A model generated the notes under the pieces. That model saw only the letters and a list, made by a program, of their open reading frames with translations. It did not search any database and had not been told where the DNA came from. DNA of 59,780 bases, counting the filler, from Catajapyx aquilonaris (Eukaryota): assembly GCA_000934665.2 (NCBI GenBank). It is 3 parts of 3 records of this genome, joined end to end, with 100 filler letters (N's around TTAATTAATTAA, not from the genome) between each part and the next. Parts side by side here need not be neighbours in the genome. Positions count along the whole stretch, not along the records: positions 1 to 19,895 come from JYFJ02006377.1; 2 more parts are not named here. One strand, written 5' to 3'. Both the position numbers and the translations under genes were made by a program. Shown here piece after piece: positions 1 through 39,940 of this stretch (the first letter of the stretch is position 1; each line of letters begins with the position of its first letter).

Positions 1-287
1 AGAACAACAAATTCATGTTTTCAGGGTGTGTGGAAAATGTAGCACTTTGGGCATCGACATTTGAAGGCTTCTGTATTGGGATTTCAGTAGTGTCACTTGA
101 TGACCCTTGCTTCTGGGAAGGCTGCACGAAACAGACTGGGCATTTTGTCGCGCACACTCTCATTGTCGGGCCAGTAATCAAATTCTTTGAGGTGGTAGTA
201 CAGGAAGTTCAGCCAGGTATCAAACCCCTTGGATGCTGTGCTTTTTGAAAGTCCAAATAAAAAAGCAAGATCAATGTCTTTGCTTCT

Positions 288-1270
288 TTAAGGGGGAATG
301 CAACCCTGAAGCCTTGTTTTTCTGGGTGCAACTTTGCATTTATTTTCTGGGAAACTAAAAATTCCAAATGCACAAGTTTTCTCACATTTATTACACTAAA
401 CTTACACTACTTTCATTTTACAAATGTACCCATCTCGGTGCCCCGTAAACGGGGATTATGAATGTTGCCGTTGAGGGCTGCGCAACATGCTGTGAGTCCA
501 TGGTGGGCGGGCTGCACTCTTAAGCGGTAATCTGTAATATGTGAAAATTTACATATCACTTCTCTGTAAGTGTGACTTTGCGCTGAACCTAAATCGAGAC
601 ATCTCACGTGTTCTTTTCTAAGAAATAATAGGATTTAGAAAGTCGCTACTGCAATTTGTCTATAATTTTGGCAGAAAGATGTGCATAAACCCATTTAAAA
701 GTATTTTGACCTCCAATCTCAGAGGTTCAGCGCAGAAAGACGTGTTGGGTGTCACCAGTAAAAATATCAAATCTGGTGGAACCTCCATTCTTTAGCTATG
801 CCGCCCACCAGGTTGAAATATGTCATTTGTGGGAAAATTGAGTTAAAGAAAAAAATTGAAAATTAATGGGTGGAAAAAATTTTAAGGTCAACTTACCAGT
901 CTCAATCTATGCCTGGCCCATACAAGTGCCCTTCTTCTTCCACTGCCTTGTCTTGGGCTGCCTTCCTTTGCTCCCGAAGAGCTGCCCGGCCTTCTTTGGT
1001 GGACACCAGAGCTCGTGCCTCTGCTTGGGTGACCCTCTTGACATCCCTCTCCTGACACTCAGTCTGACAAGAAGGCCCTGGTGTCACACCCATCTTCTGC
1101 TTGACTGCCATGTATATATTGCTCCCTTCATTAAACACACCGGCATCAATGTAGGCAGCAATTTCGACTGTCGTGGTGCCGCTGCGGCGGCCTCCGTCCC
1201 TAGGTAAATATGAATTACTTGCATTCCTGTAATCCAATTTCATTAAATACATGGATACCTGGGAGCACAA
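288..1270 (-). mobile_element. 3' end of a Kolobok-like (Mutator-like domain) DNA transposon: C-terminal ORF fragment plus terminus
   Basis: ORF 902-1270 ends ...EEEGHLYGPGID*, a C-terminus typical of these transposases; TTAA-GGGGGAATGCAACCC at 288 resembles a Kolobok end (TTAA target site, purine start). Confidence 0.5.
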
Positions 1271-1279
1271 TTTTATTCC

Positions 1280-3111
1280 TTAATCAAATTCTGCTTCGTG
1301 AAGCCATGCCAACATTTTCATTTTAAAGGCGCTCTTCTGCCGCTTGTCCAGTGCCTGGATTCTTGGCAGTACACTTAATAGAAACAGCTTGTCAGGGTCG
1401 TCAGGTGGTGGTGGAGCAGCAAGTCTCTGGAGGACAGCTATCTCGAGTGCCTCTGTCCTTGCCCTCTTCCTTGACGGTGGCTCGAAGTCTTCTCGCAGAC
1501 TAGATGCACCAAGAGTGCTGCTTTCACCTTCTGCTTCTCCTTCACTCCCACCTTCAACCTCCACAGTCTCCTCTTCCTCCACCTCAACTCTCAGCATGTG
1601 GCCGTCCCAGTTTCCTGATTGGCTGAAAGTGACAAAACAATCAGTTTATTGCGCCAGAAATGCAAGAGTTGCATTGCATCCAGTGTTTTCATGGCTACAT
1701 CCCTATTTTTAATACTCTGTTTGGATGGAAAGATGGACACATGTAGTCAGAAGGCAGGCTAATCTCCACAATAGGACAGCTTGAACAATTGGCTAGAAGC
1801 ATTTCATAATGGACACAACATGTAAGCCGCAACCAGTATGATGCAGTTAGTGTGAAGCAAGAGGAGTTGATTAGAGGAAAATAAAATCACCTCCGAGGCT
1901 TCGTTACTGCCTCCAAGAACTGGTGGAGTAGGCTGAACAATGGCCACTTCTTCCGTAACACAGCCTCGGAGCCACTTCGGCCATCTCCGAGCGCCTTCTT
2001 TTCCCGGACATATTTATCCATCAGGCTCTTCCACCTCGCCTTGGCTTCGGCAACTGTAAATAAAACATTTCATTAAGACCTTATCAGGGTAATGTCAATT
2101 TCTGATTCCCAATACTGCTTGATGTGAATTACCAAGGCACATCCATATAGCCTACCATGTGAAAGAAAATATTGGGATTGGGATTACTTATGAATGGAAC
2201 ATGGGTGCACACATTGAGCAGCAAGCTTTTTACTCTATTCTGATTGGTAATTGCATGGATAAATTATTATTATTACCGACCCTTCCATTTTGCTGTTCGG
2301 GTGCCATGTACATATTAATAAATTAAAAACATTTCATAGCATTTCACACAAGCTACTTGCCACAAGTAATGACTGCCATTACATATATAATGACCATGTG
2401 ATAAGCACACTCCTATGACTTTGTGAAGGGAAATTTGTGCTAAACGGTGACTGGGTAAAGTTCATATCACCACTCACGCCTGCATGCAACAATGCAGGTA
2501 CTGTACAATGTGAAGTTGTAAACTGGAAACCATTAAAACAGCATCAAATCAACTCTTAGAAATCTTGAAATAAGCTTGTAATGTTTTTTTGTTGGTAAAA
2601 AGCATTTTAAACCCTTAAAAATTGATGCTCAATGGGAAACTCAGTAGCTTGCTCAGTAATGATGCTCTTTTAATGCCGTGCGGTTTGGCCGCCATTCCTA
2701 CTGCTGCTACTCAATGGCAAGGAACTGAAGGAAGGGATGGTTGGGAGGGGTCCGCGAGTGCAATGGTGTTTGATGTAGCCCCCTAGGTCAGTGCAACCAT
2801 GCATGTGGTCTTGTGTTCCAGCAGTACGAGTATACTCCCCAGTCATGCTGTAGTCCTTGGCCAGCTTCTCCCAGTGGTGTTCTTTCACGTCGGTGTTGCG
2901 GTACTCCCGCAGCCTAATGTCCCAAATAATTGGGACACTTTGCACCACAGTCACGAAGACTTCGTCCGTAGCAGCCATCTTTTTCTTTGACAAAGGAACG
3001 GTATTTCAAGGAACACAATTATAACTTCAAGGGACACATGTACCACTTTGAAGTCACACTTACCTTACTGATCACGCATGGTGTAGTAGGTGCTTCACAA
3101 TTGACGTCCAT
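1280..3111 (-). pseudogene. Spliced MADF-BESS domain gene, probably a Harbinger/PIF accessory gene; exons 3064-3111, 2840-2984, 1891-2053, 1280-1622
   Basis: MADF motifs VQSVPIIWDIRLREYRN...HWEKLA and AKARWKSLMDKYVRE...KWPLF; BESS motif DPDKLFLLSVLPRIQAL...FKMKMLAWLHEAEF; exon phases are compatible, but the donor at 2839 reads GGGAGT instead of GTGAGT. Confidence 0.75.
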
Positions 3112-3299
3112 TGCAGGGAGAAGGAAAGGTTGGGGTCCTGGGTTTTACATATTGGGTCTCCTGACATCCACGAACTTTTCCTATAGGCTATACATTTCTA
3201 CAATGCTAAATTATTACCACACTTACTAATTACTACACCCATTTATGTACACTACATTCTACAACACTCCCCTGCACTTCACATTTTCAGTTCTACTCG

Positions 3300-3960
3300 T
3301 AGGCGGGTCGCAAATGCACGCACATTCTCAGAACTTATGCACCGTGTCTGCTAGTTGTTGGGTCAGGGTCGATAGGGCTGGCGCTGAAGTAAATTGTGTC
3401 AACAACGCTTTCTTAATCTTTTCCCAAGTGTCAATGGTTGATTCCGGAAGCGAATTTAAATACGCCCGCGCTTCACCGGCTAACTTCAACTGCAGGACTT
3501 ATATTTTTTTGCCTTCTTCTACACCTGCCAATTCCGCTGCTATTTCCATGTCGGCGATAAAATCCCTAATGTCCTGGCCGCAATTCCTTCCGCTATAACT
3601 GGCCACTGTGGTCAGCACCCCCATGTTCAGCGTCCTGATGTTTACCACCTGTGGGTCATTACCCGTTCCTGGCATGTTGAACTTTGAGTAGGATAACCCA
3701 CCCCAATTGTACCAGTAATTTTGGTCAAAAAAGTGCCCTGTCTTCCAAAATATCGCCTGATGTCTCCGTAATATGACTCCTACCTTAATCGCACCTTTCA
3801 TTGACTCAGTATAACCCTATCCTACCGACTGCTGCCATTTGTAACGGTTATTTTGGGGTGATATAGGTGTAGGAATGGGGGTGGGGATGAGGAAAAGGGG
3901 TTGGGGATGAGGGGGAGTCTCTTTGTTCCAGCCTGATCTCCCCCCCCCCTCCCCCCGTAG
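3300..3960 (-). mobile_element. Gypsy LTR retrotransposon 5' fragment: LTR end, primer-binding site and degenerate gag
   Basis: On the minus strand ...GTTACA (LTR end at 3840) is followed by AA and TGGCAGCAGTCGGTAGGAT; gag-like YSGRN...DIRDFIADMEIAAEL...*VLQLKLAGEARAYLNSLPESTIDTWEKIKKALLTQF contains an internal stop. Confidence 0.75.
3819..3837 (-). promoter_or_regulatory. Primer-binding site complementary to a tRNA-Ser 3' end
   Basis: TGGC(A)GCAGTCGGTAGGAT matches the complement of the invertebrate tRNA-Ser end ...AUCCUACCGACUGCG-CCA (recalled, not searched) with one extra base; it lies 2 nt after the LTR terminal CA. Confidence 0.7.
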
Positions 3961-4289
3961 TGGGAGGTTACATAGCTCCTACTTCATCTGGAGGGTGCCT
4001 GCCAGCATCGACCTTATCACATGCTTCACGTTGTTGCCACCAATTCGTGACAGCTGACGCGTCTGATGTAGTGGGGGAATAATAACAATGAAATACAATC
4101 CGAGCTCTTGTACCACCAACAAACTCTCCCTCCAGTCGCATTATCAGCAGGGACGATGACCCATGTTTATGGGACACATTCAACACAGGGCAAGCCCCTC
4201 CTTGCGCTGGGAATTCAACAACACTGTAACTCGTCATTGTTTCTCTGAAAAGTAAGAAACACATTCTTAGCTCAAGGCTGCAATAATCT

Positions 4290-4993
4290 GGGGCCTGTAT
4301 GATTGCATAGGCAGTTTGTGCCTGTGTCTGGACAGGTTTTCCATGGACAACTTTTTCTGCCAGTTCCTCACTACTTCCTCGGCATGTTTTGATGCGATGT
4401 GCATCCGATCCTCTCGACACACGAAATGCTCTCTCGCGCAACCAGCACCGTGAACCTTGCACCGCATCAACCAGCATTTTGAGTTTAGTTTCGTCACACG
4501 CTACATTTTGTCTGTACCACTCCGATGATTCAGCACTCTACTCAACAGGAAATATTTTGAAACTCGTTTCCCCACACATTTCGGCTCACTACACTTTGTA
4601 CCTGGTCAACACTCCGGTCTGCATGATTTTCTCCTTGGCAGTATCTTGTGCACTCTCTTGTAAATTCCTCTCCACTCCAAGAATCAATGTTCCCATGACA
4701 CCTTCTGCAGCTGCTTCATCGTCTTCTTTTTTGAGAGAATTGATGAAAGGACAGTTAATGTCAGGGAATGCTGCCAACATGGATTCGGGGAAAACTTTTT
4801 TCACGTTCACTTTTATTTTAGGTGGTCCGAAAAATGTTTCCAATAATGCTGCCTTCTTGTAGCTATGGCATTTGCTCGCTGGTAGGCCCCACGACTGGGG
4901 CTGAGAAGTGACAGATTCGGCAATTTCCTCGTTAATTGCATACGTCATGGCAGCTGCAGCAGGGCCTAATATAAGGATTTGTTCGGACTGCAC
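4290..4993 (-). pseudogene. Degenerate transposon-associated protein fragment leading into a YqaJ-like nuclease N-terminus
   Basis: SVTSQPQSWGLP resembles the motif that follows SWIM fingers; VQGSRCWLRERAFRVSRGSDAHRIKT resembles the start of a YqaJ domain; frameshifted. Confidence 0.5.
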
Positions 4994-5483
4994 ATTAGGC
5001 TCTCAAAGTCACACAGGCTTCACTGGAATATAATTGTAATAATATTAGGCAGGTTCCAAAAGGTTAAAATATTATATTTAACTCTGTCATCAGATATAAC
5101 AAACAGTACCTTTACATTTTTCTTTTTTGCATCATAAAACACACAAAACCATATCAAAAAAGACAAGGGACATTACATTTGCATTACTTTTCTTTACATT
5201 TCTTTACATTTTCCTTCACATTTTTCATTCTCAAAACATGTAGGTTGCACACGAAGAAATATAAGATATAAAGTACATGCATTATGTGACATTAAAGTGG
5301 CATCAAAGTGACAGCAGAAATTGGAAAAACGTAGCAGGAAATATATTACAGTTGCATACTTCTATTTACTCGTGTATATTACATGGATTACCCTGTTAGA
5401 ATGAGAGAATAAGTCAAAATGCCATGTAAGTTATTAGAATGAGACCTTCGATGAAGGAGGTTCTGATTCCAGTTGTTCACACG

Positions 5484-6113
5484 TCAACGATCTCGGGAAC
5501 ACATGAGCGAACCACTCTTGGTGCCTAGCCTTAGGTGCCTGACGTTTCCGTCGATAGTGTCCGCTTGCAATGATTCCCGATCAGGTGTCTTCACCAGATT
5601 ATAGAACGAGATGAGCCTCTCCACGTCGGCGCTTGATGGTGTTGCAGCCACAACTCTGGCGACCGCAATGAAGAGACTCGTCCACTGCTTGATGGATGCA
5701 AGCAGTGGCAAACATTCCGAGCACTTCCTGCCAGAAAACCGCTCATCTGCCGATGCTTCGCGATAGCTGGCCGCGAAGTCGATCAAGGAAAGGTCTGGAC
5801 ATATCTTCTGATGAGCTGCACGAAGCGCCGAATCAGAGACATCCATGTTGAATCGCTCTAGAGGTAGTAGATCGGCAAACTCCGTTGGGTCCAACCGTTC
5901 TTTCACAAAGTTTATGAGGGCATGCAGCGCGTCGTTGCGAACGGCTGTAAAACAGCGCCGGTCCGTCACAAACTTGTTGTGTGCACTGGCACGACGAGGG
6001 GGTGGCACGAAAACATTTATTCCATGCAGTGTTGCAGCTGAAGCAGCTCCATTTGGTCTATCACTGTTAAAAAGGATGGAGCCAAATGGCACCATGTAAG
6101 GGTGCCAACCCAT
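5484..6113 (-). mobile_element. hAT transposase C-terminal fragment (dimerisation domain)
   Basis: ARVVAATPSSADVERLISFYNLVKTPDRESL matches the hAT dimerisation motif. Confidence 0.75.
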
Positions 6114-6337
6114 GTCCCACCTGCAGCACCCTTAATGGAGCCGATTGTCACCCTTTTTTTGGGGTGACAATTGGCACCCTATGAGGAAGGTGGCAAAAGG
6201 GACGACAGGGGTGCCATTTGGCACCCCTTGTTGAACTTGGGCAAGGGTGCCAGTTGTCACCCAAGGGTTCCTTTTGGTTCCCTTCTGCACATTGATAAGG
6301 GTGCCAGTTGTCACCCAAGGATTCCTTTTGGTTCCCT
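6098..6337. repeat. Cluster of direct and inverted GGGTGCC/GGCACCC/GTCACCC repeats, resembling transposon subterminal repeats (possibly CACTA/CMC)
   Basis: AAGGGTGCCAGTTGTCACCCAAGG.TTCCTTTTGGTTCCCT occurs at 6243 and 6297, with shorter inverted copies upstream. Confidence 0.55.
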
Positions 6338-6673
6338 CATAAATGATTGTTCAATTTAAAAAGAGTCTGGTTTATGAATGACTAATTTGGAGGGAAATGC
6401 TTTTAAAGAATGTATAACCCTTCATAAAACATAGCAGAAAAATGCATACGTATTTTGGATTTGCAATTCGTAATTTTCAACCTATTTCTTAGATCGTCGT
6501 TTGGTTTTCCGCACTTTAATTATGTGGAATATATACCATGTAATGTAATGCCTAAAACAAGACGCTGGAAAACAAAGTTGATGGAAATTACATTTGATTG
6601 AAGTGGAAAAATGTGTTTTTTGGACCAACTTATACTTTATTAAAAAGCGTCATAACGCTCTTGGGCACATGCT

Positions 6674-7961
6674 TCACAGATTATTTTTTTTAAACACGCA
6701 AGTGTCGAAGAAAATCAATGTTTTTTTGGTACTCTGGTTGTAGGAGATCCCAAAGACCCAGTACAATGAAAACCAGAGGATTATCGCTGTAATCCCATTC
6801 TTCACTTTAAGAATTTCCACCCCATCTAGGTAGATTGTGTAGGTGCTGTCCACGTCAAAGATGGTAGTGTTAGTGGAAACCGTCAACGCCGGATAAGGCG
6901 CTGTGGGCTGCATAGTCGCCAGTACTTTTTCATTCAAGCATAGAGGGATCATCAACAAGTTGAAGAGCGCATCATTTTCTGAAATGTTGGAAAATGACTT
7001 ATGTGATAATAATCAATGGACAACACAGACTATACCATCTGTTGCTACGGTCACTTCATATGCTTGCTTTAGGGGATGTGGCCGTAACTTCAACTTGGCA
7101 CTTGATGCCAATCCAGCCCCATGCCGTCGCAGAAAATCAATGAGTCTTGAGGGTGTGATCCCGTAGATCCCGGCTTCTTCGAGCAGCTAGAATATATTCC
7201 ATGAGAAATCAGGGGTTTAGCGATATACATCTTAGGAAGAAAGGCATAATACAAACGACTGATGACATTATAAAATAGTTCATACCTGTTCCTCCATCTT
7301 CAGCGCCGGGTACTTCTGCAGTACATCTTTTACCGAGTTTTCCCGCATGAACTGGGTCCTTGAAAAGCGTGTCCTGGCCATTTTGTCGTTAACGATCTTC
7401 ATGTCAGGCACTCGAGATTGGCACTGTTCGTCATCACCTTCTCGTGATGTGCCAGGGTGCTGGCATCTTCAGCCTGAATTGCATCCTAAAATGAATTACG
7501 ATCAGAAATTGCCAACCAGTAACAACTGAAATATGCACTGCATGCAAATATGAACTGCATGCACGTATAAAAGTAGAAACAAATGTCTCACTTCTTCAGG
7601 TGCCTGATAACGAGCTTCTAGAACAAGTGGCTCGTTATCCGGCAAAGCCTCCTTCGTCTTCTTCCCCCCATACTTCTGTCCCATCACCTCCATCTCCTCA
7701 TTCGCAACCAGCTGGCAATGGCGGCTTCGAAATTTTTTGAATTTGTCTTGTAGGCTCTTGCGCCACAGTGCCTATAATAGTTTCATGGTATGAAGTACAT
7801 AGAGAGACACTCAAGTGCAAAGGATATAATGACCAACAGTGCATGATTCAAAATAGAACTTACATGTGGTTTTGCATTTAGGAATGGTTTCCCTTTCAAA
7901 TGTGGGTACCTGTCTACAAGCTTTTCACTTGCCTGTTCGTACATTCTTGCAGATGGGTAGC
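6674..7961 (-). pseudogene. Multi-exon SAMD3-like gene fragment (a family often found inside CACTA/CMC elements)
   Basis: Exons read YPSARMYEQASEKLVDRYPHLK, ALWRKSLQDKFKKFRSR, SVKDVLQKYPALK, and a C-terminal AIILWFSLYWVFGISYNQSTKKTLIFF; GT-AG introns are present. Confidence 0.6.
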
Positions 7962-8199
7962 TATGGAAGAGGTCAGTAATAGCATATGTATTTAGTTTGC
8001 TTATACTGTATAATGTCGTTCACTGAAATTATTTTGAGCAATATATTGTGCCAGCAATCTATGGCATACATGGAAATAATAGAAACTGAAGGGGTGGTCA
8101 CTACAGCTGGAAAAGCGCATACAGAGCAGTTTCTGAGCATGCAGTGTTGAAGCCTTAATGCTCACATGTCGTATCTGACCAAATCATCGAACAACGTCT

Positions 8200-9370
8200 C
8201 AATAATTTTGAGACGGCACTTCCCAAGCTTAGCAATAAAATCATGCTTTCTTAATGCCACCAGTCGGCCCATAAGCGTTTCAAGGAAGTCATCAGTTTCT
8301 TTCTTTCTTTCTTTTTTGTAATTTCTTCCAACGTTGTGTGATCAACAGATACCCAAGATTTGTAGGTGATCTTGTCGCTTCCATGCTCCTCGAATGCATC
8401 ATGGATGGCAGTCTGCAGGCTCTGCATACTGTCGCACAAAGGACAGAGTTTGCTTCCGTCTTTGTAGAGTTCATCATCACTACATTAATCGCTCGTTTTA
8501 GGTTCCCTCGAGGCCGAGCTTGAGCTCTTGCACATGGCACAGTCATTCATAAAGCAAGCAGGCTGAGGAGGAATGCATGTCATTAGGGCCAGTAGATGTT
8601 TGTATGTGTCGTATATGTGATCCGGGGTGGTCACAGGTCCGGGCAGGAATGTAGGGGGAGGGAGCAAGCAAATCAACGTCTGTACACATAGCTAGCGTTC
8701 ACAAGACTGCCTTTTATTTCCTACTCCCGCCAGGAGACAGGAGTGTATGGGTCAGTACACAGAGGGGAACAGCAGGGTTATAAATATGACAGTATGTAAC
8801 ATTGCCGGAGTAGTTCTCAATAAGATCCGAAAATGCTGGGGTAGATTTCATTTGGAAACCTTCATCAACTTCATGTTTTGGTGTAGGACACAAGTGCACA
8901 CGTTGTGAGAACCACTGGAATCGGCCAACACTACGTTCTTTGGACGCAACTCGGCGAACTTGCTGGATCCAACTTTGACAGTGGGATGCTCGTCTCGAAA
9001 ATGACTGAACGCTTCCAACACATTACACAACAGCAGTCGCTTCTGCACGAGCTCCCTTTGTCCACCAATTCGTACTGCAGCACAATCCTTCTTTCCTGGC
9101 ATAAGACGACTGATATCATCCCTTTCATAAAAAGACTTAGCAATTCCCACTGTCTTCGCATCCAGTGTCTGTCCTGGTCTTGGATTTGGCGATGAAAGCA
9201 CTCTTTTCTCTTCTTGTAGTTATTTTGCGCGCCTTGCCATGTGATAGGTCGTGCCAAATTCATTCATGATATTTCGTATGCTCCAGCTACGAGGCAACAC
9301 TGTCTTTCACTTTGTTTGTGTACAACTTTAAATTTGTCTTTCAGTTGGGACACCATTTCCTCGCCACAGT
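8200..9370 (-). mobile_element. Degenerate DNA-transposase fragment of the 'Cc8L18.2-like' type (possibly Sola)
   Basis: FYERDDISRLMPGKKD...VQKRLLLCNVLEAF..F...HP.VKVGSSKFAELRPK.VV...SGSHNVCTCVLHQNMKL, then CFMNDCAMC, ITYKSWVSVD and KHDFIAK; frameshifted. Confidence 0.6.
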
Positions 9371-9756
9371 AATGTGTGGCCCAGCTTGATTTTGGCAGTG
9401 TAATGGGACACAATATGTACTTTCTTATGGTACATAAATTTTAAAAATCGAAGATGTCTGAATTTGTCAAAAATTGGGTCAAAGGTCATAATATGTAACG
9501 CCATGGACTGAACAGAATCGTAAGTGATATTTTGACAGACTCTTCCCTTCTACCAAAGTTAAGTGCAGTGAGGTAGGGTCGCGACATGTATTTTGATAGG
9601 GGGAGTGTCCGGGAACTGATTTAGACACTACTTGGGGAAAACTGGCCCCCTACATAAGAGAACTATATTCTACTGTGTATTGCACATAAAATGAATAGGC
9701 TACTTGTGAGTTAGTTTTCAACATTTTATTAATCAGGCAAAACTGGACAGGATTTC

Positions 9757-10981
9757 TCATCGAAGTCCCACACGAGCTGCAACATTGCTTTTTTCGAACT
9801 GCCTCTGTTTGGCCGCCGGGATATCCAGATATAGTGACTTCACATACTTTGAGAGCTGCGCATACTTTGAGGGCTTCTGATTGATTCTCCTGAAAAGAAG
9901 CATGAATTACAAATTATGGGTGTGAGAGGTTAAAACAGGTTATGACTAGAGACACTGGAATTTGTTGGAATGAAAATTGAAAATTGGTGGAATGAATCAA
10001 GAAATTGTTGGTATACAAGGAAGTTGATTTCCACACTGAAAAAACCAGACGGTCTCATTGTTTGCTTTCATACGCAAACGATGACAGAATTTCCAAGTTG
10101 GTAAGTGACAAATTCGTGCGTTTATCAGAGAGCACTATGGAATATGTGGAAAAAATTCTTTCACAGTCAACATTTGACACTGGAAACCAAACTCCTCTCA
10201 GACTGCGTGTAGAAAAATCTCTTCCTGCATCGCCAGAAGGGCATCAAAGACTGACACATCTTTGCTACGGACCATGTCCAATAATTCCCTCAACCCAAGA
10301 ACAGCACCTTCTATATTGTAATTCTGCAAGCTTGGAACACTAATCTTCTCATTGATCCCTTCAGCACATCCTCTGCCAAATTCAAAGTCAGCAAGTTCTC
10401 CTTGCAAAACAGTTTTGATAATTATGCCCTTCCAAAATATCCCTAGCAGGATCACCTTCAATATTAGTTTATTCAACTTCAGCAACACCTTTCCTGCGAC
10501 TGCTCTAAGGGTGGTTTTACACAGAGTTCGTTCTGCTTGTGACATCTCCTGCTTTCAGCCACACAGTTAGAAAATGTACCTTCGTGGTTGACTGTCAGCT
10601 TTTTTTGCAGAAATGCGAGTTTTTTCCGGTATTGTAAACAAATTGTCGTAAACAGCAGAAATTGTTGGCATCTTGCCATTTATGTCCAAATTGTCGATAT
10701 GGACGTAATTCCGCTGCACCTTCAATTTGTGCTCGCCAACTGCAATCAGCTGCACTTCTAGCTGAAGGGAAAAACAAACCGGTCAAAAACAGAGTATTCA
10801 TCACTTCATAAAACTCTCCACAAAGGCATGTGCAACTCACCTTGCCACCCATGATTTTAGTGACAATATTGTTCGTCTCGAAGGTGACAGTAGCAATGAT
10901 ATCAGACTCGACGTTTGCTGCAGCCTCAGGGTACGGCCTCACATACACCGCCAGTATGTGCCCATATGGATGGAAATATTT
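9757..10981 (-). pseudogene. 3' part of a spliced gene with an RRM-like segment; exons 10841-10981, 10580-10761, 9757-9889
   Basis: KYFHPYGHILAVYV...IATVTFE is RRM-like; GT-AG junctions keep the frame through to TGA at 9757; AATAAA on the minus strand at 9725-9730. Confidence 0.45.
10070..10545 (-). mobile_element. hAT-type (CGGBP1-like) transposase C-terminal fragment nested in an intron
   Basis: After a frameshift the ORF reads LRGVWFPVSNVDCERIFSTYSIVLSDKRTNLSLTNLE, a hAT dimerisation motif. Confidence 0.65.
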
Positions 10982-11709
10982 CTGCAAATGTTAACATGGG
11001 ATGAACCAAGGTTTTTAAAACAACAAGCTGCATGACTTGTGTGTCCATATACAGTATTATTTTATGCAGCTACAAGTTCACAATTCTCGCACTACCAGTT
11101 AGTTCACTAGTAACACGGGGCATCAACAGGTGAGCATATGTCATACAATTGAGTAATGAAAAGCATATTTATGAGTGAAAAATGGAGCTAAATACAATCT
11201 ATGAAAAATGGCTGTGCAAATTACCATTACTTCCTCTTCCCCCCATTCACTTGGGACCCACACCTTAATTGCCTTACGGGCTATTTCTTGGTGAGTCGGA
11301 CTGGGAGTTCGAAGACTTCGCTCCTGAACTGAAATGGAAACAACAGTTACAAATAACTGCCACCACACTTTCCCTAGGCACTGATGCAATTGATCAGCTG
11401 ACAGAATGACCACTTGTTTCGCAACAATAAGATCATGCCAGCTGAATTGTCGGATTTCCATTATGACATTTTCCAGTGTCTCTAGTTATGACTCCTTTTT
11501 GACAAAAGAAAGGTATGCAATGACGTCACAGTTTGTGTGTTACTTTACTTAATAAATTGGGGGAAAAAAGATACTGAAGATTTTCATTTGACATAGTAAA
11601 TTAGCCTCGAATATCTGCTAACGTTCCCACCAGAACATTGTCCACGTGTGTCAGTGGTGCCGATGCTGGCGGTGCCAGCTTCCTTCTCTTTGGCTTAGGT
11701 TCAGTGTCA

Positions 11710-12010
11710 TGTGAACCAGGCTAGGTAGAGTGGGGGGCTCTATGTCAAATAGATCCATCATTCCTCGGGCAAGGTCCTTCCGCAAAGCACTTGCTGAAAT
11801 ATTCTTGTCTATCATTGTACCTCCTATCTCCTCTCGCTGTTTTGAAGTCATGGGCCGTTTCCTAACGCATGAGTGGTCGTCTCCTATGTCCCACACGTGG
11901 ACCTCAAGATCTAGACCATACATTCCAGGATCACTGGGAGGGGGATTAGGGCAGGTGGCAACAAGTTCGGCCCCACAGCCACAAGTACCGCGAATTTTGA
12001 GATAGTGCTG
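11710..12010 (-). mobile_element. NOF-FB/MULE-like protein fragment
   Basis: FRGTCGCGAEL...DHSCVRKRPMTSKQRE...SASALRKDLARGMMDLFDIEPPTLP resembles the NOF N-terminal region. Confidence 0.5.
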
Positions 12011-12099
12011 TGCGTCATCTCCTCTTGCGACATGATGTCCTTCAAAGCTCCAGGAGCATGCGAACTTTTTTTTCTTCCATATTTCAGCAGCGAGGATAT

Positions 12100-12865
12100 T
12101 GCTCCAAATACCTTCTTCGAGAACAGTGTACTTTCTTGTATGCTCGTGCCTTCCAAGTGTTTCAAGGTGTTGATGCCATCTTCTGCCCCCAAGCCCAGGT
12201 ACAACTGATCCAGGGCAATGAGTCTTTCTGGATTGCCTGTTTCTACTTGTAAGATGTCGATGTTCTTCACATATGACAGCGGCATGAAGTTACTGCACAG
12301 GTGTTTCAAAAGCCGCTCTACTTCAGGCTTCAGTCTGTGAAGTAGAGGGCTTTCAGATTGGAACATCAGATTAAAATCATTCCAGTACATATGACATGAA
12401 GTTTAAATACAACTCGGTGAATTTATTTTCCATGGTCTGCAGCATTTCAGATAAAGTGATGGAAGGATCGTCTAGGACATATTCTCGAAGGTACTCCTTC
12501 AGAGGTGTGTACTGTTCCCAGACTCTGTCTACGCAAGCTTTCAATGACAACCACCTAGTTGTGGCCGGAGAAAGAATTTTGTGGACTGTCACGTGAAAAA
12601 ACTCTTGGAATTCTTGAAAGCGCTTCTGGCGTGAATAACTCCTATTGAAGTGAGCCCCAAAATTCCTCAATAAATCTTCCACAGAATGTGGTAGCTTCTT
12701 GCAGGCCGCGGACGCTGCGAGATGTATCATGTGACACGAACATTTCACATATGCGATGTCTGGAATATCTCCTTTCAAAAGGGCAAAGACAGAATGGTGT
12801 CGTCCAGCCATCACATTGGTGGTGTCGGAAGAAAATTTTTCCATAACGACCAATGCCTCCAGCAA
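12100..12865 (-). mobile_element. hAT transposase core fragment, frameshifted
   Basis: FSSDTTNVMAG, KCSCHMIHLAAS, F.RS..RQ..F.EFQ, TRWLSL..CV.RV.EQY, FNLMFQSE. Confidence 0.85.
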
Positions 12866-12899
12866 CCATAATCTTAAGGCTGAATTTGGGTTTCTGTAT

Positions 12900-13113
12900 T
12901 GGGGAAATGGTTGAGGGATTGATTGCTGGTGCGTATCCTGCAGTTCTGCTTGTTTGGTGAGGATTGCAGTTCTACTGGCGACTCATCTGAAAACATTATG
13001 TGACTTCTCTTGATCCTGCCTGCTGCGGAATCATCAGCAAATCCTTGGTCGACAAGCCTGGTGCTAAACTTGATTCGGTCTTGAATGTTTTTAGCTGACA
13101 ACATTGGTTTCAC
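12900..13113 (-). mobile_element. Tc1/mariner transposase fragment
   Basis: KPMLSAKNIQDRIKF...IMFSDES...PNKQNCRI covers the first catalytic Asp. Confidence 0.7.
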
Positions 13114-13114
13114 A

Positions 13115-14933
13115 CAGCGCCGGCCCTAGAGCAAATGGCGCCCTGGGCGAGGGTTCAAGGAGCGCCCCCCCCCCCCACACACACACACACACACACGCAC
13201 ACAAAATAAAAACAACAAACCAAAAAAACCTCATTCCCNCACACACACACACGCACACAAAATAAAAACAACAAACCAAAAAAACCTCATTCCCACTGTC
13301 GCAAATATATTACAAACACTGTCTAAAGTATCATCTGTTTTTAGTATACGGAATTTCTGGTACAGGGAAATGTGACGTAAAAAAATTAACAAGGAAAAAT
13401 TGGGATAAAATAATACCCATTGATTTGGTTTGTGTGTATCACCACTGCACCTGAAAATGGAGCCTTCCGCTCTTTTAATTTAGCTGTGACAAAGCTTCTG
13501 AAAAGTCAATTTCGTGAGCAATTTCACTTTCTATGAAGAGCACTGCAAGTGAGGTCAGTCTGTCGTCAGCCATGGTTGATCGGAGATAAGTTTTAATTAG
13601 CTTTAACTTCGAAAAGCTGCGCTCTCCACTTGCTACTGTTACCGGCATAGTCATGAGGATTCGTAACGCCCCACCCACACGTTAGGGAATACGTCAATTG
13701 TATTAGAGTCTTTCAGGAAACTTTCTCCTGTGGCACAATTTTACACAGTTGCTTAAGTTCCTCTCATATCTCGACTCCGCCTACATCAGAATGCTCTCCA
13801 TCGGTAACAGCGCGGTGTAAGTCCATGCAGTGCGCCACGGTGTTGTCCGGAAGCACCTTGGCGTTGTAAAGAAATCCCCAAGTGTCCATGTGAGAAAACA
13901 GTTGGTCGAACCGCTCCTGCACGGACACCCGGGTAATGTCCACAAGAGGATTCAAAAAATCTCTCCTGAATACCTCCTCAGGACTGGTTGATAGCTCGCC
14001 CCCAGCACCCTCGTACTGGAACATGATCATCTTAGGGCGCTTCCTCGGTAGATTGGCGAACACAGGGTCAACGTCCATGCTTTCGGCGATCTCCTTCGCA
14101 ACCGGAACTGCACTGTCCCTGTAGGTGTTGATAAACTACAAACAGTTTTGCAGGAGTGATGTTGCCGTTGAAATATCCACTGTCTCACTCTGCATCGCCT
14201 TGCGTACAATATTCACTTGGAACAATATGTCATACCATACTGCTAGTGAAATTAAGAACTTGAAGTCGGTCAGTTGGTTTCCTAAGCACCCTGCTTCGTG
14301 TCAACTCCAGGATCAGCTTGTTGCATTTCAGAAATTTGTTGAAGGGCTTCGTAAACCTCCTCCTTTTGATAACGAACTGTCTTAACACTATCAATACGGC
14401 TCTCCCAGCGAGTAGCGCTCAATGGTTTTACTGTTAGACTTGGCACATTGTCCTTCAGGATTTGCCACCGTTGAACAGAGGCGGAAAACAAAACGTAAAT
14501 TCGCTGCAATACACCAAACAGAGTGACCGATGATGTCGTCGAAGACGCTGCATCAGAGACTACTAGGTTGAGAGAATGGCAGCCACAGGGTACGAAGGAA
14601 GCTCTAGGGTTCATTCCGAGCACTCGAGCCTGTGCGCCTTTTTTCCCCCTTCATGTTGGCACCATTATCGTACCCCTGGCGACGTCAGTCTTCAAACTTG
14701 ATGTTATTTTCTTTCAATGCTTGAAGTAGAAGTTCTGCAAGTCCTTCGCCTGATGATTCCGAAACAGACCTAAAGCCTAGAAAATGTTCTTTCACTTGGA
14801 TCAAAGTGCTATCCGTATCCACAAATCTAACAGTGAATGACATCTTCTCAGAGTGACTTATATCAGGGGTGCAGTCTAGAATTACAAAGTAATACTTCGC
14901 AAATCTGAGCTCGGATAGAATCTTATCCAACAC
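13115..14933 (-). mobile_element. hAT (ZMYM1-like) transposon, 3' two-thirds with its terminal repeat
   Basis: YFVILDCTPDISHSE, QGYDNGANM, VPCGCHSLNLV, SATRWESR, PVTVASGERSFSKLKLIKTYLRSTM; terminus CAGCGCCGGCCC at 13115; several frameshifts. Confidence 0.9.
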
Positions 14934-15089
14934 TTTATCGGGTAAATGTGCAGAAAGCTACATTCTCCCAGAATATCGGGTATATGTGCATAGATATATC
15001 GATATTTGGGATATATCCCAAGAACGATTTTCCAACGATGTAATAGTTTACTATCGTTACAATCCGAATTCACTTACCATTGATTTTGA

Positions 15090-15515
15090 TTACTCGGGGC
15101 CTGGATACAACCTCCCTGCCGCCTGGAAAAAGTGGTGAAGTCTTTCTTTATGGTTGGGGAACGCTCTTTTAAAATAAAATTCGGCATGGTAACCCGCGAA
15201 GTGTGTTTCCCTTCGACCATATCTGCAAATTTAGAATCCAAATTTTTTAAAAAAATTACACGCTACCGTAGTTATTTTTAACATATATTTTACGCACCTT
15301 GGTATTTTTGATCGGACTTCTCGCCAGGTTCGCTCGATATTCTGGGTGTGAGCCCCAGTATCAGGATCGACGAAATTGTAAGTGTGGTTAACTGTTAGAT
15401 GCTTAAATCCCTTGTTTTTCAAACAATTGTGTGATTTCCTACAATCACTATAAATTATGCTGCCTGGTTTCACATATTTTTTGATAGCCTTCAATAGTGT
15501 CCCTGCTGATCTATT
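15090..15515 (-). mobile_element. Merlin (ISXO2/IS1595-like) transposase C-terminal fragment with an intron; exons 15298-15515 and 15090-15222
   Basis: NRSAGTLL..I..YVKPGSIIYSD...HLTVNH..NFVDPDTGAHTQNIERTW, spliced in frame to YGRRETHFAGYHAEFYFKR...LYPGPE*. Confidence 0.85.
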
Positions 15516-15517
15516 AT

Positions 15518-15686
15518 GTGGCTTGTGATCCGTGATAATAGTCACATGGCGTTCGTATATGTATGCATGGAACCGTCGGACACCGAAAAGAATCGCGAGT
15601 GCCTCCTTGTCGATCTGAGCCAGGTTACGTTCAGCCGACGTCATTACTCGCGAGGCGAAAGCAACAGGTCGTTCCTTCCCGTCCAT
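15518..15686 (-). mobile_element. Gypsy pol RNase H fragment
   Basis: DGKERPVAFASRVMTSAERNLAQIDKEALAILFGVRRFHAYIY...ITDHKP. Confidence 0.9.
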
Positions 15687-15846
15687 AAATTGTGGTGTTC
15701 GTCCATTCCCATAACGTGTCTGCCTTCAACAGCTCTCGGAGTGGCTGCACTTCATCCGACAGGTGAGGTATGTACCTCGACAAGTAGTTCACCATCTCGA
15801 GGAAGCCCCCTCGGTGTGGGTTCCTGTCCGTGGTGAGGGGACCACC

Positions 15847-16539
15847 CTACTGGGGATAGGTAATGTTAAAATAATGTTTAAAATAAAGGAGTTGTAGCTT
15901 TGGTATCAATTCCCGTAGGAAAAGATCATCACGTTCTACGCTAATAAGGACGCTGCCAAATGGAGAATATACATACAATGCACACTTCCTCAGTCCGGTT
16001 ACGTACAGACTCTCCTGCACCTGAGTGTAATAGGTATGAGTTTTAATCGATTGAAAACCTTGATCACCCCTTTTCAGGTACTCAACAACTGGAATATTAT
16101 CTGAGGATATGACAGGGCAATCCTTGGCTCGGATTGGGCATTTGATTTCAAGTAACTGTAGCTCGCCCTGTGACTCATAACACCCATCTGGTGAGAAGCA
16201 CAGCCATGGTTGTTCCAACATTACTAACACGCCACAAAGGTATACCCTGGACTTAGTAACATGCTCAAATTCACACCGAGCCACAGACTCGTGTTTCAGG
16301 CCATACCTTATGGCTTCCGAGCTGATATGCCTATGACTAATCAGAGATCTAGCAAGATTATCGTGGCTGTCCCTCCTCGTCCAAATGCGGCGAGTCTTGG
16401 TGGCTGAAATGCGTTTGTCCCTAACCTCCACCCATTCAGTACAGCTTCTTTGAGACACAGTATTTTTAAATATGCTGTCGCACTCACTTTCAGACACTTC
16501 TACTTTGCACTCATACAATTTTTTTTGTTCGTCATTCAA
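15847..16539 (-). CDS. YqaJ-like (lambda exonuclease family) recombinase domain, transposon-associated, probably partial
   Basis: W...R..RISAT, YGLKHE..A, PWLCFSPDG, LEIKCP and YYTQVQ motifs in an uninterrupted 230-codon ORF. Confidence 0.8.
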   Translation of the reverse strand: MNDEQKKLYECKVEVSESECDSIFKNTVSQRSCTEWVEVRDKRISATKTRRIWTRRDSHDNLARSLISHRHISSEAIRYGLKHESVARCEFEHVTKSRVYLCGVLVMLEQPWLCFSPDGCYESQGELQLLEIKCPIRAKDCPVISSDNIPVVEYLKRGDQGFQSIKTHTYYTQVQESLYVTGLRKCALYVYSPFGSVLISVERDDLFLRELIPKLQLLYFKHYFNITYPQ

Positions 16540-16819
16540 GCCATCACTAGCGGGATGTACTCACCTCCTGAGCTTCATACCTGACTCTGTTGGGATGGTT
16601 TTATACATAGCATAGATATCATGCCTTCTCTTATTCTGAACCTGGCTCAAAACTTGCATTGCCCTTCTCTTCACTTTTGCACACTGCGTCTTGGATCAAT
16701 GCACTTAACATAACACTGCAAACTTGCTCACTCTCATTTTATTTTCGTTGCCAGCTTTCCGTCCGGTCCAGTTCATTCAGTTTTTCACCACCACGTGGCG
16801 CAAGTGAAAAGGAATAGCA

Positions 16820-16885
16820 TCATCCTGCATTCCATACTACCCGGCGAACAACGCTGTTCGCCGGGTAGTATGGAATGCAGGATGA
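16820..16885. repeat. Perfect 31-bp inverted repeat with a 4-nt loop
   Basis: TCATCCTGCATTCCATACTACCCGGCGAACA-ACGC-TGTTCGCCGGGTAGTATGGAATGCAGGATGA. Confidence 0.95.
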
Positions 16886-17326
16886 ATCTGTATCCGGAGA
16901 GTTCGACCCCGTGACAATTTCGCTACCGGCAGTTCCGCTGGTGACGCCCGGGGAATCGTTTGGAATGCTGCTCCTATTGACATTAATCCCTGATCTAGGA
17001 ATGTCGTCATATTCCACACCAAGATAGGACTTGTGACAACTGCAGGTATCTTTTCACCTTCAGTGGTCACATGTACAAGAGTCCTCACCCAAACAACTGA
17101 CTTCCACCAAAAAAACAACAATGTGACACCTTTTCCAACTCCAATTTTCAAATATGCACCTTCAAACCAATAATAATTCAGGTATCATAGGCGCACAATT
17201 GAGAATCCCATTCCCACCGATGCACACATACATGGTGTAATGTCATATTTACTAAGTTGCAATCTAGGGAGTATGTGACCCACAAGTTTGTCAGTTACTG
17301 TGATAAATTTTATTCTGGTCGCTTAC

Positions 17327-18505
17327 CTTCCAGAGGGTGATGACTCTCTCGCTTGTGCTATCGGATATGATGCCTGGAAGGTGGCTTGGTAACTTATCCA
17401 GCAGTGTGTCACGGCCCTTTCCTGTAGGTGAAAAATAAATTTGAGTTCACATGCTCCACAAAGGACTTTCAACACCATCTCAAAGTTTCTTACCTGACAA
17501 CGTGCTCCACTCCGTTTTGCCCTTCAGCCCAGAAGTGGTAAAAAATCTGATGTGGATGCCACATTTTCCAATAGGACCGGCAAGTTTCTGTAGTACTGTT
17601 TCATCCACTGAAGATAATTTCTTCGTTTCATTGTCCTTGTCCATTTCTTCGCATTCAAAGACAAGGTTCTCTATCAGACGGTCCACGATCCTCGTCTTCA
17701 TGTGGAGTGTGTCCACCACAATAGCCTGCGGCTCCACATGGAAAATTGGCAAATGTTTCACACCAGACGTCTCAGTTACATAGTAATTTTTCATATTGGA
17801 GAGACTTCTTTTGTGCGGAACAGTCGCACTTGGGCAGGTCATCCACAGGCAATCACTTGTCACAGTACAGTACATACACGGATGCTTGCTATTGGCACTT
17901 TTTAAACCAGCCACAATCAGGAGAAATTTCATGTCCCCTCCGAGTACTATTTTCATCTTCACAAACCGGTCGACAGGATTCCTTAACCAAACTCCTCCAT
18001 CTGCAATTATTTTGTTCACTTCTTCTGCCAATAAAGTGGTGGCTTCTTTCACTGCTGAATAATTTTCACTGTGTTCCATGATCATGATAGTTTTGTGTGT
18101 TTTCACAGATTGCATGTTTGTTGAGCCGTCTAAAACAAAATTCACTGCTGTCCAGTTCAGTCCATAGTTGTTCATTCTGACACCATCACCTTCCAGTTTC
18201 AGAGTAATGGTTTCTTCCCTTCCGACCATGTTCTTGTGGGCACATAGCTCTTCCACCGAATCGACAACAATCTTCATCACTGAATCTACAGTTGCTCCTG
18301 CAACTCTGCCCCTTAACAATGAGATATTATATTATTGGTCCACATATTCCTGACACGATTGCAGCAAGGACCACTTTGGAATTTGGGACATGGAGTTCAA
18401 TGATTTCCAGGCATTTTGGCTTATGTGGCAGCTCTGCTGAATGTGCAAGAAGATGAAAACTAGATTCTTTTGATCGGGCGTCAATGAGGCAAAATCAGAG
18501 GTTCC
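17327..18505 (-). mobile_element. RAG1-like (Transib/Chapaev-related) transposase fragment with an intron at 17422-17493
   Basis: LKLEGDG, SENY, LGGDMKFL..VAGL.SANSKHPCMYC, VVDTLHM..RI.DRL, WSTLSG; upstream frameshift near 18330. Confidence 0.65.
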
Positions 18506-18539
18506 TGCTATATACAAATTGGGCTTCCCCTTATAGACA

Positions 18540-19080
18540 CGGTCCCCTTTGCTGGGTTTAGAGCATAAGTAGCATTTCCCCCTCTAGGCCGGCCACCAGG
18601 GCCGTGGCTACCGTAGAGGAACGGCGGGCCACCCGTGTCATCAGTCCGAAGACTATGCCCCGGAAGGTGTGGGCCGGGTGCAGACTGGACGGGGTGACGT
18701 AGGCCCGGAGGGCCGTCGGCTTTGTGTAGTGCGCTAGCTGGCTTTTTCCAGAAAGAGTCGGGCGTCCAAATAAGAGACGTCCGTGGCAGCTCCCTCATTG
18801 GTCACCGTGAGACGTCGGCGACTTCGGACCAGGGAGATTTATTCCTCCACGGTGCCTGGGTGTGCCACCAGAAGCACGTCATCTAGGTTCCGGATCAGGG
18901 TGTGGACGGCGGGACCCTGGGCTTCCAGGAAGTCCGCGTCAACCTTCGCTAGGTAGACATCCGCTAGTAACGGGCTGCAGCTGCTTCCCATTTTCACCCC
19001 ACAGAGCTGCTGGAACAGCCGGTCCCCAAGCCAGAAGTAGCCGGTGTAACGGGCGAAACGTACCCCGGGCGAAATGTACC
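18540..19080 (-). mobile_element. Penelope-like reverse transcriptase fragment
   Basis: FQQLCGVKMGSSCSPLLADVYL...IRNLDDVL, then VSYLD, YTKPT and SLHPAHTFRGIVFG; GC-rich relative to its neighbours. Confidence 0.75.
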
Positions 19081-19895
19081 TCACCTGCGTAACTGATCCT
19101 GATGCAACGGGGAGCGGGGGGTACAAATAGCCCAGGCGATTCTTACCGCACCTGAATAACTGAACCTAATCGAAGGTGGAGAGCTGACCATGATTTTTGC
19201 ATAACGCATTTCTTGAGTGGATATGTAGCGAAAAAGCATATCCATGCGATGAATGGCAAGATAACTTATTAACAGCAAAATTGCTTCCGGGACCTGAAAG
19301 CGATTTTACACGTCTGAAAGACTGAGGAAATTAGATGTGGCCATCTAAGACTCTACTTCATAATCTGCGGTGTATGGAAAAGGTTGTGAGGTTGTGAAGG
19401 GTGTACTGCATGCGTTGCCTTTGCACAGGGGTTCTGCCCAAACAATAATGGAGGAAATAACTGACAAGGTGCATGTGACAGATGTTGGATGTCACACTCA
19501 TTGGTACGCAATATTGAAATAATGCATCACTAAATTTTACGTAACTGTAAGGGTTCATATATTCGTACAACAGGTCAATAGTACGTTCACAATGGTGAAG
19601 TCAACAACACGACCGTATAGGTCAAACAAGCTGTCTAAAATGTAAAGCTAATGCCAGGTGTGACTTACATGATACTCGTCAGTTCTTCCATAACTTTTCA
19701 CATTTTTTGCACGAACTTAGAATTTTAGGAAAGGGTGTTTAATAAGAAACAGGCTGTCCATATGTAATGTGTTAAGTAATGTTTTAATGTTAACAGATTG
19801 TAACCGTATACGTTACAAAAACGATAGTGGGTTCATCGCTCAATACAGATCTTTATTGTGTACGAGTGTACAGAGATATACGGGAAAAGAAAGGG

Positions 19896-19995
19896 NNNNN
19901 NNNNNNNNNNNNNNNNNNNNNNNNNNNNNNNNNNNNNNNTTAATTAATTAANNNNNNNNNNNNNNNNNNNNNNNNNNNNNNNNNNNNNNNNNNNN
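19896..19995. other. Artificial contig linker
   Basis: 44 N + TTAATTAATTAA (stop codons in all six frames) + 44 N. Confidence 0.97.
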
Positions 19996-39840: not shown

Positions 39841-39940
39841 NNNNNNNNNNNNNNNNNNNNNNNNNNNNNNNNNNNNNNNNNNNNTTAATTAATTAANNNN
39901 NNNNNNNNNNNNNNNNNNNNNNNNNNNNNNNNNNNNNNNN
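39841..39940. other. Artificial contig linker
   Basis: 44 N + TTAATTAATTAA + 44 N. Confidence 0.97.

Follow-up and report, generated by a model that had tools for sequence, protein, structure and literature searches.

The first segment of a 59,780-nt window of DNA from Catajapyx aquilonaris (assembly GCA_000934665.2) is probably a transposon graveyard, in which ordinary insertions, some of them nested, have been trimmed by deletions and sorted by an orientation filter. The window is the whole stretch of DNA that was analyzed; spacers of the form N44-TTAATTAATTAA-N44 at 19896-19995 and 39841-39940 divide it into three unrelated segments of ~19.9 kb each, and all of the pieces under study lie within segment 1 (1-19895, record JYFJ02006377.1). 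In such a graveyard, each element would have come in by the route proper to its class, so that DNA transposons, moving as DNA, brought along their native introns and retroelements were reverse-transcribed, and some would have landed inside earlier arrivals. Later deletions would then have removed ends and flanks to leave abutting internal fragments, while the uniform minus orientation would stem from a filter on which insertions persist and not from the joining of pieces. An earlier, sequence-only reading of this DNA had proposed three candidates for its assembly: templated break repair, Helitron-like capture, and nested insertion followed by heavy deletion with selection for antisense coding sequence. 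The third fits best, and one case of nesting, at 9947-11484, can be pointed to directly.

Every remnant recognized in segment 1 lies on the minus strand. A domain scan of all 193 stop-to-stop open reading frames (ORFs) of at least 50 residues (94 plus, 99 minus) placed Pfam families at E<1e-4 in seven ORFs, all minus: HTH_Tnp_4 (96-287), BESS (1283-1645), MADF (2673-3005), Retrotrans_gag (3331-3498), Dimer_Tnp_hAT (13478-13681), RT_RNaseH together with DDE_Tnp_IS1595 in one ORF (15234-15725), and YqaJ (15850-16560). The plus strand gave two matches, to DUF6098 and Lactococcin (E 0.007-0.009), which are taken as chance. When 117 fetched proteins, full-length hAT relatives included, were compared with segment 1 by tblastn, 214 matches were obtained and none was on the plus strand. 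Counted as elements, those backed by a tool are minus in 9 of 9 cases (two-sided p ~0.004), or 13 of 13 when weaker labels are included. Segments 2 and 3 were considered as an orientation control and rejected for their ordinary gene content, with C2H2 zinc fingers, Zwilch, ankyrin, fn3, and RGS domains; the domain scan there covered 114 of the 202 ORFs of at least 62 residues, shorter overlapping ORFs having been removed by hand. Self-comparison found no repeats common to segments 1, 2, and 3, and no pair of long terminal repeats (LTRs) was found in segment 1.

Segment 1 thus has the layout of a flamenco-type locus, in which transposon remnants are densely packed and almost all share a strand. 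By analogy, the filter could be a one-strand (flamenco-type) source locus of PIWI-interacting RNAs (piRNAs) or the very long intron of a plus-strand gene. The excerpted text of PMC10643416 presents flamenco and flam-like clusters of Drosophila as dense remnant arrays nearly all on one strand, with a model in which, once a promoter is present, selection favors insertions antisense to the cluster transcript. The flamenco of those excerpts holds mainly Gypsy-family retroelements, whereas segment 1 consists mainly of DNA transposons (PIF/Harbinger, four hAT pieces, Merlin, ISL2EU-type, and RAG1-like), and segment 1 is likened to it by layout alone, as a flamenco-type locus predicted from sequence. 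Alternatively, the heap may have been assembled in the same way and the orientation bias may come not from a piRNA locus but from a host gene on the plus strand with a very long intron, out of which sense insertions are purged. Such a gene could have its exon or promoter in the flanks beyond the segment, but unanimity among 9 elements, or among 13 with the weaker labels, exceeds a mere tendency, and the 19.9 kb hold no plus-strand coding signal; we therefore regard the intron as an unlikely source of the bias.

The evidence for nesting comes from a complete, non-autonomous hAT-type element on the minus strand at 9947-11484 (9939-11492 with its duplications). Its ends form a perfect 14-nt inverted repeat (TAGAGACACTGGAA) and are flanked by an 8-bp target-site duplication (GTTATGAC) at 9939-9946 and 11485-11492; in the control for the inverted-end scan, 10 shuffled sequences were examined, and a pair with a duplication of at least 6 bp appeared in none of them. 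A diverged version of the flanks that lacks the element occurs in DNA contigs of the same sample, with 9925 joined to 11489 across 25 other letters, and this joint is an unoccupied paralogous site of the element. A search for other ends matching its terminus found none beyond its own two. Within it lies a hAT C-terminal remnant (10243-10058, Dimer_Tnp_hAT E 0.0076; tblastn 10186-10085, E 0.001), and it is this remnant, together with the 8-bp duplication, that identifies the element as non-autonomous and hAT-type. As both ends and the duplication are in place, nested insertion is demonstrated directly, contrary to the previous claim that no fragment in the block has both termini or a paired target-site duplication.

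Inside the same element are two exon-like blocks (10981-10841 and 10762-10580) whose splice sites match the consensus. The intervening intron (10840 to 10763) is GT..AG, and splice-like sites also stand on the outer sides of both blocks. These blocks had been labeled RRM-like, a label for which we found no Pfam match at E<=5 and no solved-structure match at E<=10. They are putative cargo of the element and would represent the sole true capture of foreign DNA seen in segment 1. DNA contigs of other copies align on both sides of the first cargo exon (10841-10981, 141 nt) and skip exactly that exon, at a joint from 10840 to 10982 that may or may not include other letters. Inverted ends and a target-site duplication are the marks of Pack-type elements, and the likeness extends further: as in the excerpts of PMC8903248 on Pack-TYPE elements and of PMC2572040 on transduplication by Turmoil-1, a non-autonomous cut-and-paste element with intact ends holds intron-bearing, exon-like cargo unrelated to the transposase. 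It differs from them in being a hAT-type element of an arthropod, in retaining a remnant of its own transposase, and in having cargo without a Pfam or solved-structure match. The excerpt of PMC2572040, in which Turmoil-1 is an element of C. elegans, calls transduplication unknown in animals as of 2008, and a complete hAT-type element with intron-bearing, putatively foreign exons is noteworthy beside that statement.

Introns had been reported in five pieces, labeled MADF-BESS, SAMD3-like, RRM-like, Merlin, and RAG1-like, all with GT-AG borders. A GT..AG intron is indeed present in each. Besides the intron in the cargo, these are the second MADF-BESS intron (1890 to 1623), a 99-nt intron in the SAMD3-like piece (7285 to 7187), a 75-nt intron in Merlin (15297 to 15223), after which the frame is open to the stop codon, and a 72-nt intron in the RAG1-like piece (17493 to 17422), across which the frame continues. 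The exception is the first MADF-BESS intron (2839 to 2054), which is GG..AG in the segment 1 copy, where the donor has been lost. Part of this evidence comes from contigs, either DNA contigs of the same sample or contigs of another sample, X5, of unspecified kind, and the joined forms in X5 are expected from spliced RNA or from a processed DNA copy. A contig of X5 (record 24) joins 7286 to 7186 in the SAMD3-like piece with 2-5 differences, and X5 likewise has a joint, 1622 to 1891, that matches the second MADF-BESS intron. The X5 contigs correspond to small parts of segment 1 only and show minus-strand splicing of single genes; no run recorded as RNA is listed as containing the segment 1 stretch.

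With introns in all five, none of these pieces has the makeup of a processed retrocopy, and the earlier view that they are not derived from cDNA holds. The further step, taking retained introns as a sign of DNA-level capture, does not. DNA transposon genes such as those of Merlin, RAG1/Transib-like, and hAT elements carry native introns and move as DNA, and retained introns therefore need no capture process; the intron-bearing pieces here are transposon genes or lie beside or inside transposons. Among them the SAMD3-like piece is the sole remaining non-transposon fragment.

Breaks in mid-ORF and abutting pieces had also been described, and several were found. The hAT piece that we call hAT-B meets a Tc1-like piece within 12845-12895, where the Tc1-like ORF (12877-13125) ends, and its other break falls between 11983 and 12160. 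A gypsy-type piece stops at 15857|15858, a point past which its other copies extend (as loose contig ends); a YqaJ ORF on the far side is cut there, with three codons left to its present stop. The junction between RNase H and the Merlin DDE domain, at ~15510-15520, is in frame within one ORF. Cut-and-paste insertion alone is insufficient, as had been argued, since without further steps it gives no abutting internal fragments; we infer that deletions have intervened. The pieces are also unequally decayed, as seen in the piece called hAT-A, in hAT-B, in the SAMD3-like piece, and in the MADF-BESS donor, which fits separate arrivals followed by decay.

One might ask whether the mosaic is spurious, the product of a short-read assembler that strung together repeat pieces from unrelated places. 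The runs that contain the segment come from one sample, of 2014, and both single N letters and a perfect 66-nt palindrome (16820-16885) are present. Against this, separately built contigs span the key junctions exactly, with 0-1 differences and at even depth (11456-13143, 13394-14973, 14944-15654, and 18554-19069, the third of which, record 5, crosses the RNase H/Merlin junction); the contigs are built from the same reads and so are only partly independent of the assembly. On balance an artefact of this kind seems highly improbable.

Several observations weigh against a graveyard of ordinary insertions. Two halves flanking an insert are seen only in the repeat around 9947-11484. Elsewhere the search for split halves gave none: hAT-B and the C-terminal hAT piece called hAT-C were rejected as halves of one element on their order and overlapping protein coverage, and the gag and RNase H pieces were rejected on their wrong order. 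Every other junction would then call for a separate deletion, unless the pieces were truncated before they came in. The junctions at 15857|15858, at ~15510-15520 (in frame), and within 12845-12895 are tight and without visible filler. Finally, hAT-B is an orphan with little decay and 74% protein identity to its best relative, which would not be expected of an old relic whose family was once active.

These same observations favor a patchwork of break repair, in which internal fragments were stitched in already truncated, either by template switching (with filler DNA) or when loose transposon DNA was end-joined. The fragments are small (0.24-1.5 kb), their junctions lack filler, split halves are missing except in the one case, hAT-B is a little-decayed orphan, and the putative cargo at 9947-11484 suggests that DNA-level acquisition does occur in this genome. 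However, break repair does not predict co-orientation, the same junctions are explained by deletions, and the clean insertion of 9947-11484 with its duplication means that normal transposition operates, so that we consider a repair patchwork improbable. More doubtful still is a combined process, active at the DNA level, in which transposon pieces, including the orphan hAT-B, were truncated before they were joined into a locus subject to recurrent breakage or to transcription, and a filter on their orientation made the heap one-way.

The copy number along segment 1 bears on a different possibility, that a Helitron or Pack-type element gathered the many fragments, all in one orientation, and carries the whole block as cargo. 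Between 11456 and 15654 only exact contigs were found, at a depth of 15-19. Over bins 11953-14608 the summed X1 depth, 16.7-25.3, is near that of the exact contigs, and the two are equal in bin 11953-12616; summed depth, taken over contigs at least 80% alike, is not a copy number and was used only to locate extra similar contigs. Since summed and exact-contig depths are about the same, no other sequence at least 80% alike is indicated over 11953-14608. By comparison, 1-11.9 kb and 18.6-19.9 kb have summed depths of 40-229 and many extra contigs at least 80% alike. This unevenness means that the block is not a multi-copy unit, and a multi-copy Helitron or Pack block, an outcome that the sequence-only reading had allowed for, is contradicted by the single-depth core.

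Helitron captures, too, give co-oriented fragments with introns like those of segment 1, and the ends of a larger element could lie beyond the 19.9-kb segment. Yet the 193 ORFs of segment 1 contain no Rep or helicase family, hairpin-CTRR-T sites number zero on either strand (0-4 in 20 shuffles), and the sole long hairpin, 16820-16885, has no CTRR after it. The core is single-copy, and the pieces held to be captured are transposon genes and not host genes. Helitron-like capture, one of the three candidates originally put forward, thus finds no counterpart in segment 1, and the idea of the block as cargo is scarcely credible. The individual remnants are described below from left to right.

At the left edge is the start of a PIF/Harbinger transposase gene (2-287, minus; HTH_Tnp_4 E 4.7e-8 at 96-287, DDE_Tnp_4 E 0.0049 at 2-208), which runs past the edge of the window and has a frameshift read near 270. 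Position 288, formerly taken for the end of an element, is an ORF/frameshift boundary inside this gene. The transposase start is preceded, at a distance of about 1 kb and in the same orientation, by a complete copy of a MADF-BESS gene (1283-2978, minus) with three exons (2978-2840, 2053-1891, and 1622-1283). Its domains are recognized by MADF profile positions 1-41 (E 5.4e-6) and 41-81 (E 0.0035) and by BESS (E 1.7e-8). A contig of X5 (record 22), a spliced paralogue with ~10% divergence, has the exon borders 2840|2053 and 1891|1622, the first of which places the intron whose donor is lost. A stretch of 253 nt in 1631-1885, nearly the same as the MADF-BESS intron 1623-1890, is missing from DNA contigs of the source sample, and this skip may reflect an intron-less copy of a MADF-BESS paralogue elsewhere in the genome. 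Both genes lie in stretches with extra similar contigs.

The MADF-BESS gene probably belongs to the Harbinger element as its second gene. PIF/Harbinger elements are defined, in the portion of PMC9710019 consulted, by a pair of genes for a transposase and a Myb/MADF-type protein, and this pairing of a DDE transposase with a Myb/MADF-type gene is found at 2-3005. The adjoining, same-strand arrangement is likewise that of the elements described in the excerpts of PMC9710019 and PMC4482050. Those excerpts do not include a BESS motif in their description of the second gene, whereas BESS is present here, and here the two genes are separated by a further ORF. This ORF (905-1279, minus) lies between the MADF-BESS gene and the transposase start, encodes 125 residues, and is without a Pfam family.

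An LTR-retrotransposon gag piece follows (3331-3845, minus; Retrotrans_gag E 1.8e-5 at 3331-3498). Upstream of it, the sequence at 3840-3845 resembles an LTR-end/primer-site boundary and is a possible one.

Between the gag piece and the first hAT remnant, ORF 3971-4537 was tried as a SAMD3-like piece, with 853 candidates among longer proteins and none at E<=1e-3; it is probably not that piece and may be non-coding. Comparison by tblastn defines four hAT pieces in segment 1: hAT-C, the remnant at 10186-10085 inside the complete element, hAT-B, and hAT-A. The first of these, hAT-C, is a C-terminal piece (5487-6131, minus) in which the tblastn match at 5702-5502 covers the C-terminal dimerization region (best E 1.4e-4). 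Beside it, at 6232-6337, is a small tandem duplication of 54-nt units inside ORF 6135-6350.

The SAMD3-like piece (6677-8019, minus) is a 5'-truncated, intron-bearing pseudogene copy from a multi-copy gene family, several similar copies of which are present among contigs of the same sample. Its likeness to SAMD3 is putative. In addition to the intron joined in X5, two more GT..AG intervals were read by eye (7863-7772 and 7591-7486). An in-frame stop lies at 7013-7015, and a 1-nt indel at 7429 relative to the other copies shifts the frame. When exon 6677-7012 was compared with 1.84 billion representatives, 22 matches were obtained at E<=1e-3 and none at 1e-10, all of 69-284 residues; the names in the eight clusters looked up were only "hypothetical," "unnamed," or "uncharacterized." For exon 7505-7771, none of 26 candidates was accepted as a relative. 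Further along, at 8165-9263 (minus), are transposon-like ORFs without a Pfam family, identified by ORF reading (summed depth 165-363, bin 8633-9296).

To the right of the complete element, hAT-B is an internal fragment (11983-12895, minus) that corresponds by tblastn to approximately residues 300-591 of full-length relatives of 723 residues. Queried with ORF 12380-12982, the search returned 80 full-length hAT transposases with DUF4371 and the hAT dimerization domain (best E 2.4e-66, 74% identity). It has one frameshift, near 12380, in ~850 nt, and lies in an exact contig, 11456-13143 (record 3), at single depth. No other copy at least 80% alike was found in the same sample, which makes it a little-decayed orphan. 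Protein identity is 60-74% to hATs of beetle, moth, stick insect, and wasp and 64% to a lizard protein; judged from these comparisons, its kin may constitute a horizontally spreading hAT family. A search of solved structures with hAT-B gave nothing relevant. For the NOF label once attached nearby, the leads were weak ones in the ESM Atlas only, with GCM in 12% of one cluster and ALS2CR8 at 0.87.

The adjoining Tc1/mariner-like piece is short and internal (12877-13125, minus), with HTH_Tnp_Tc3_2 at E 0.044 as its only domain match and no match in the solved-structure search; its label is weakly supported and follows sequence motifs. A small tandem duplication of 56-nt units, at 13165-13292, stands beside a (CA)n tract and includes a single N at 13239. 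The last hAT piece, hAT-A (13472-15047, minus), is 5'-truncated and reaches its natural C terminus (Dimer_Tnp_hAT E 3.4e-10, DUF4371 E 0.0058; tblastn 15047-13472). It carries at least four frameshifts and one in-frame stop.

The remaining pieces are more varied. The 3' part of a Merlin transposase gene, with its intron and stop codon, occupies 15093-15520 (minus; DDE_Tnp_IS1595 E 3e-10, profile positions 58-129 of 153), next to an internal gypsy-type reverse transcriptase (RT)/RNase H piece of ~340 bp (15510-15857, minus; RT_RNaseH E 2.9e-18). The 164-residue ORF at 15234-15725 (minus) reads from the gypsy-type RNase H in frame into the Merlin DDE domain and, if spliced, reaches the Merlin stop codon. 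Beyond the gypsy-type piece is the YqaJ exonuclease ORF (15858-16560, minus; YqaJ E 3.2e-14), cut at its 3' end. According to excerpts of PMC4482050 and PMC4122938, a YqaJ exonuclease is an accessory gene type of ISL2EU transposons, and the ORF here is of that type; it differs in standing alone, with no THAP/DDE transposase and no ends. The perfect palindrome at 16820-16885, which has 31-nt arms and a loop of 4 nt, separates the YqaJ ORF from the RAG1-like piece; a foldback, a scar of repair, and an artefact of assembly are all conceivable origins for it.

The putative RAG1/Transib-like transposase piece (17290-18331, minus) takes its label from an ESM Atlas lead. The part at 17483-18331 scores 0.97 to RAG1 clusters, with 202/256 shared features; Pfam and solved-structure sequence searches gave no match, and a single-sequence AlphaFold model (mean predicted local distance difference test score 33.6) was unusable. 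A contig of X5 (depth 2.1) differs from this ORF at 4 of 251 nt (18061-18311), and the ORF or a near-identical copy of it may be transcribed. The rightmost piece, at 18842-19165 (minus; RVT_1 E 0.0017), is the RT piece of a multi-copy retroelement labeled Penelope (summed depth 229-342, bin 18593-19256), a label with weak or no tool support. Of the names first given to the pieces, then, RAG1-like retains its ESM Atlas lead, while SAMD3, RRM, NOF, Tc1, and Penelope drew weak or no support from the tools used.

Two readings of segment 1 would have different consequences. If ordinary insertion and decay account for it, segment 1 is a co-oriented graveyard, and its value would be as a candidate one-strand small-RNA locus composed mostly of DNA transposons. 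If an active DNA-level process were at work, tight, filler-free, and sometimes in-frame junctions would follow from it, and an archive dominated by DNA transposons would then have a mechanism for acquiring sequence, as opposed to passive insertion and decay. Repair signatures at the junctions, if they are carried there, would bear on how transposon archives gain new sequences.

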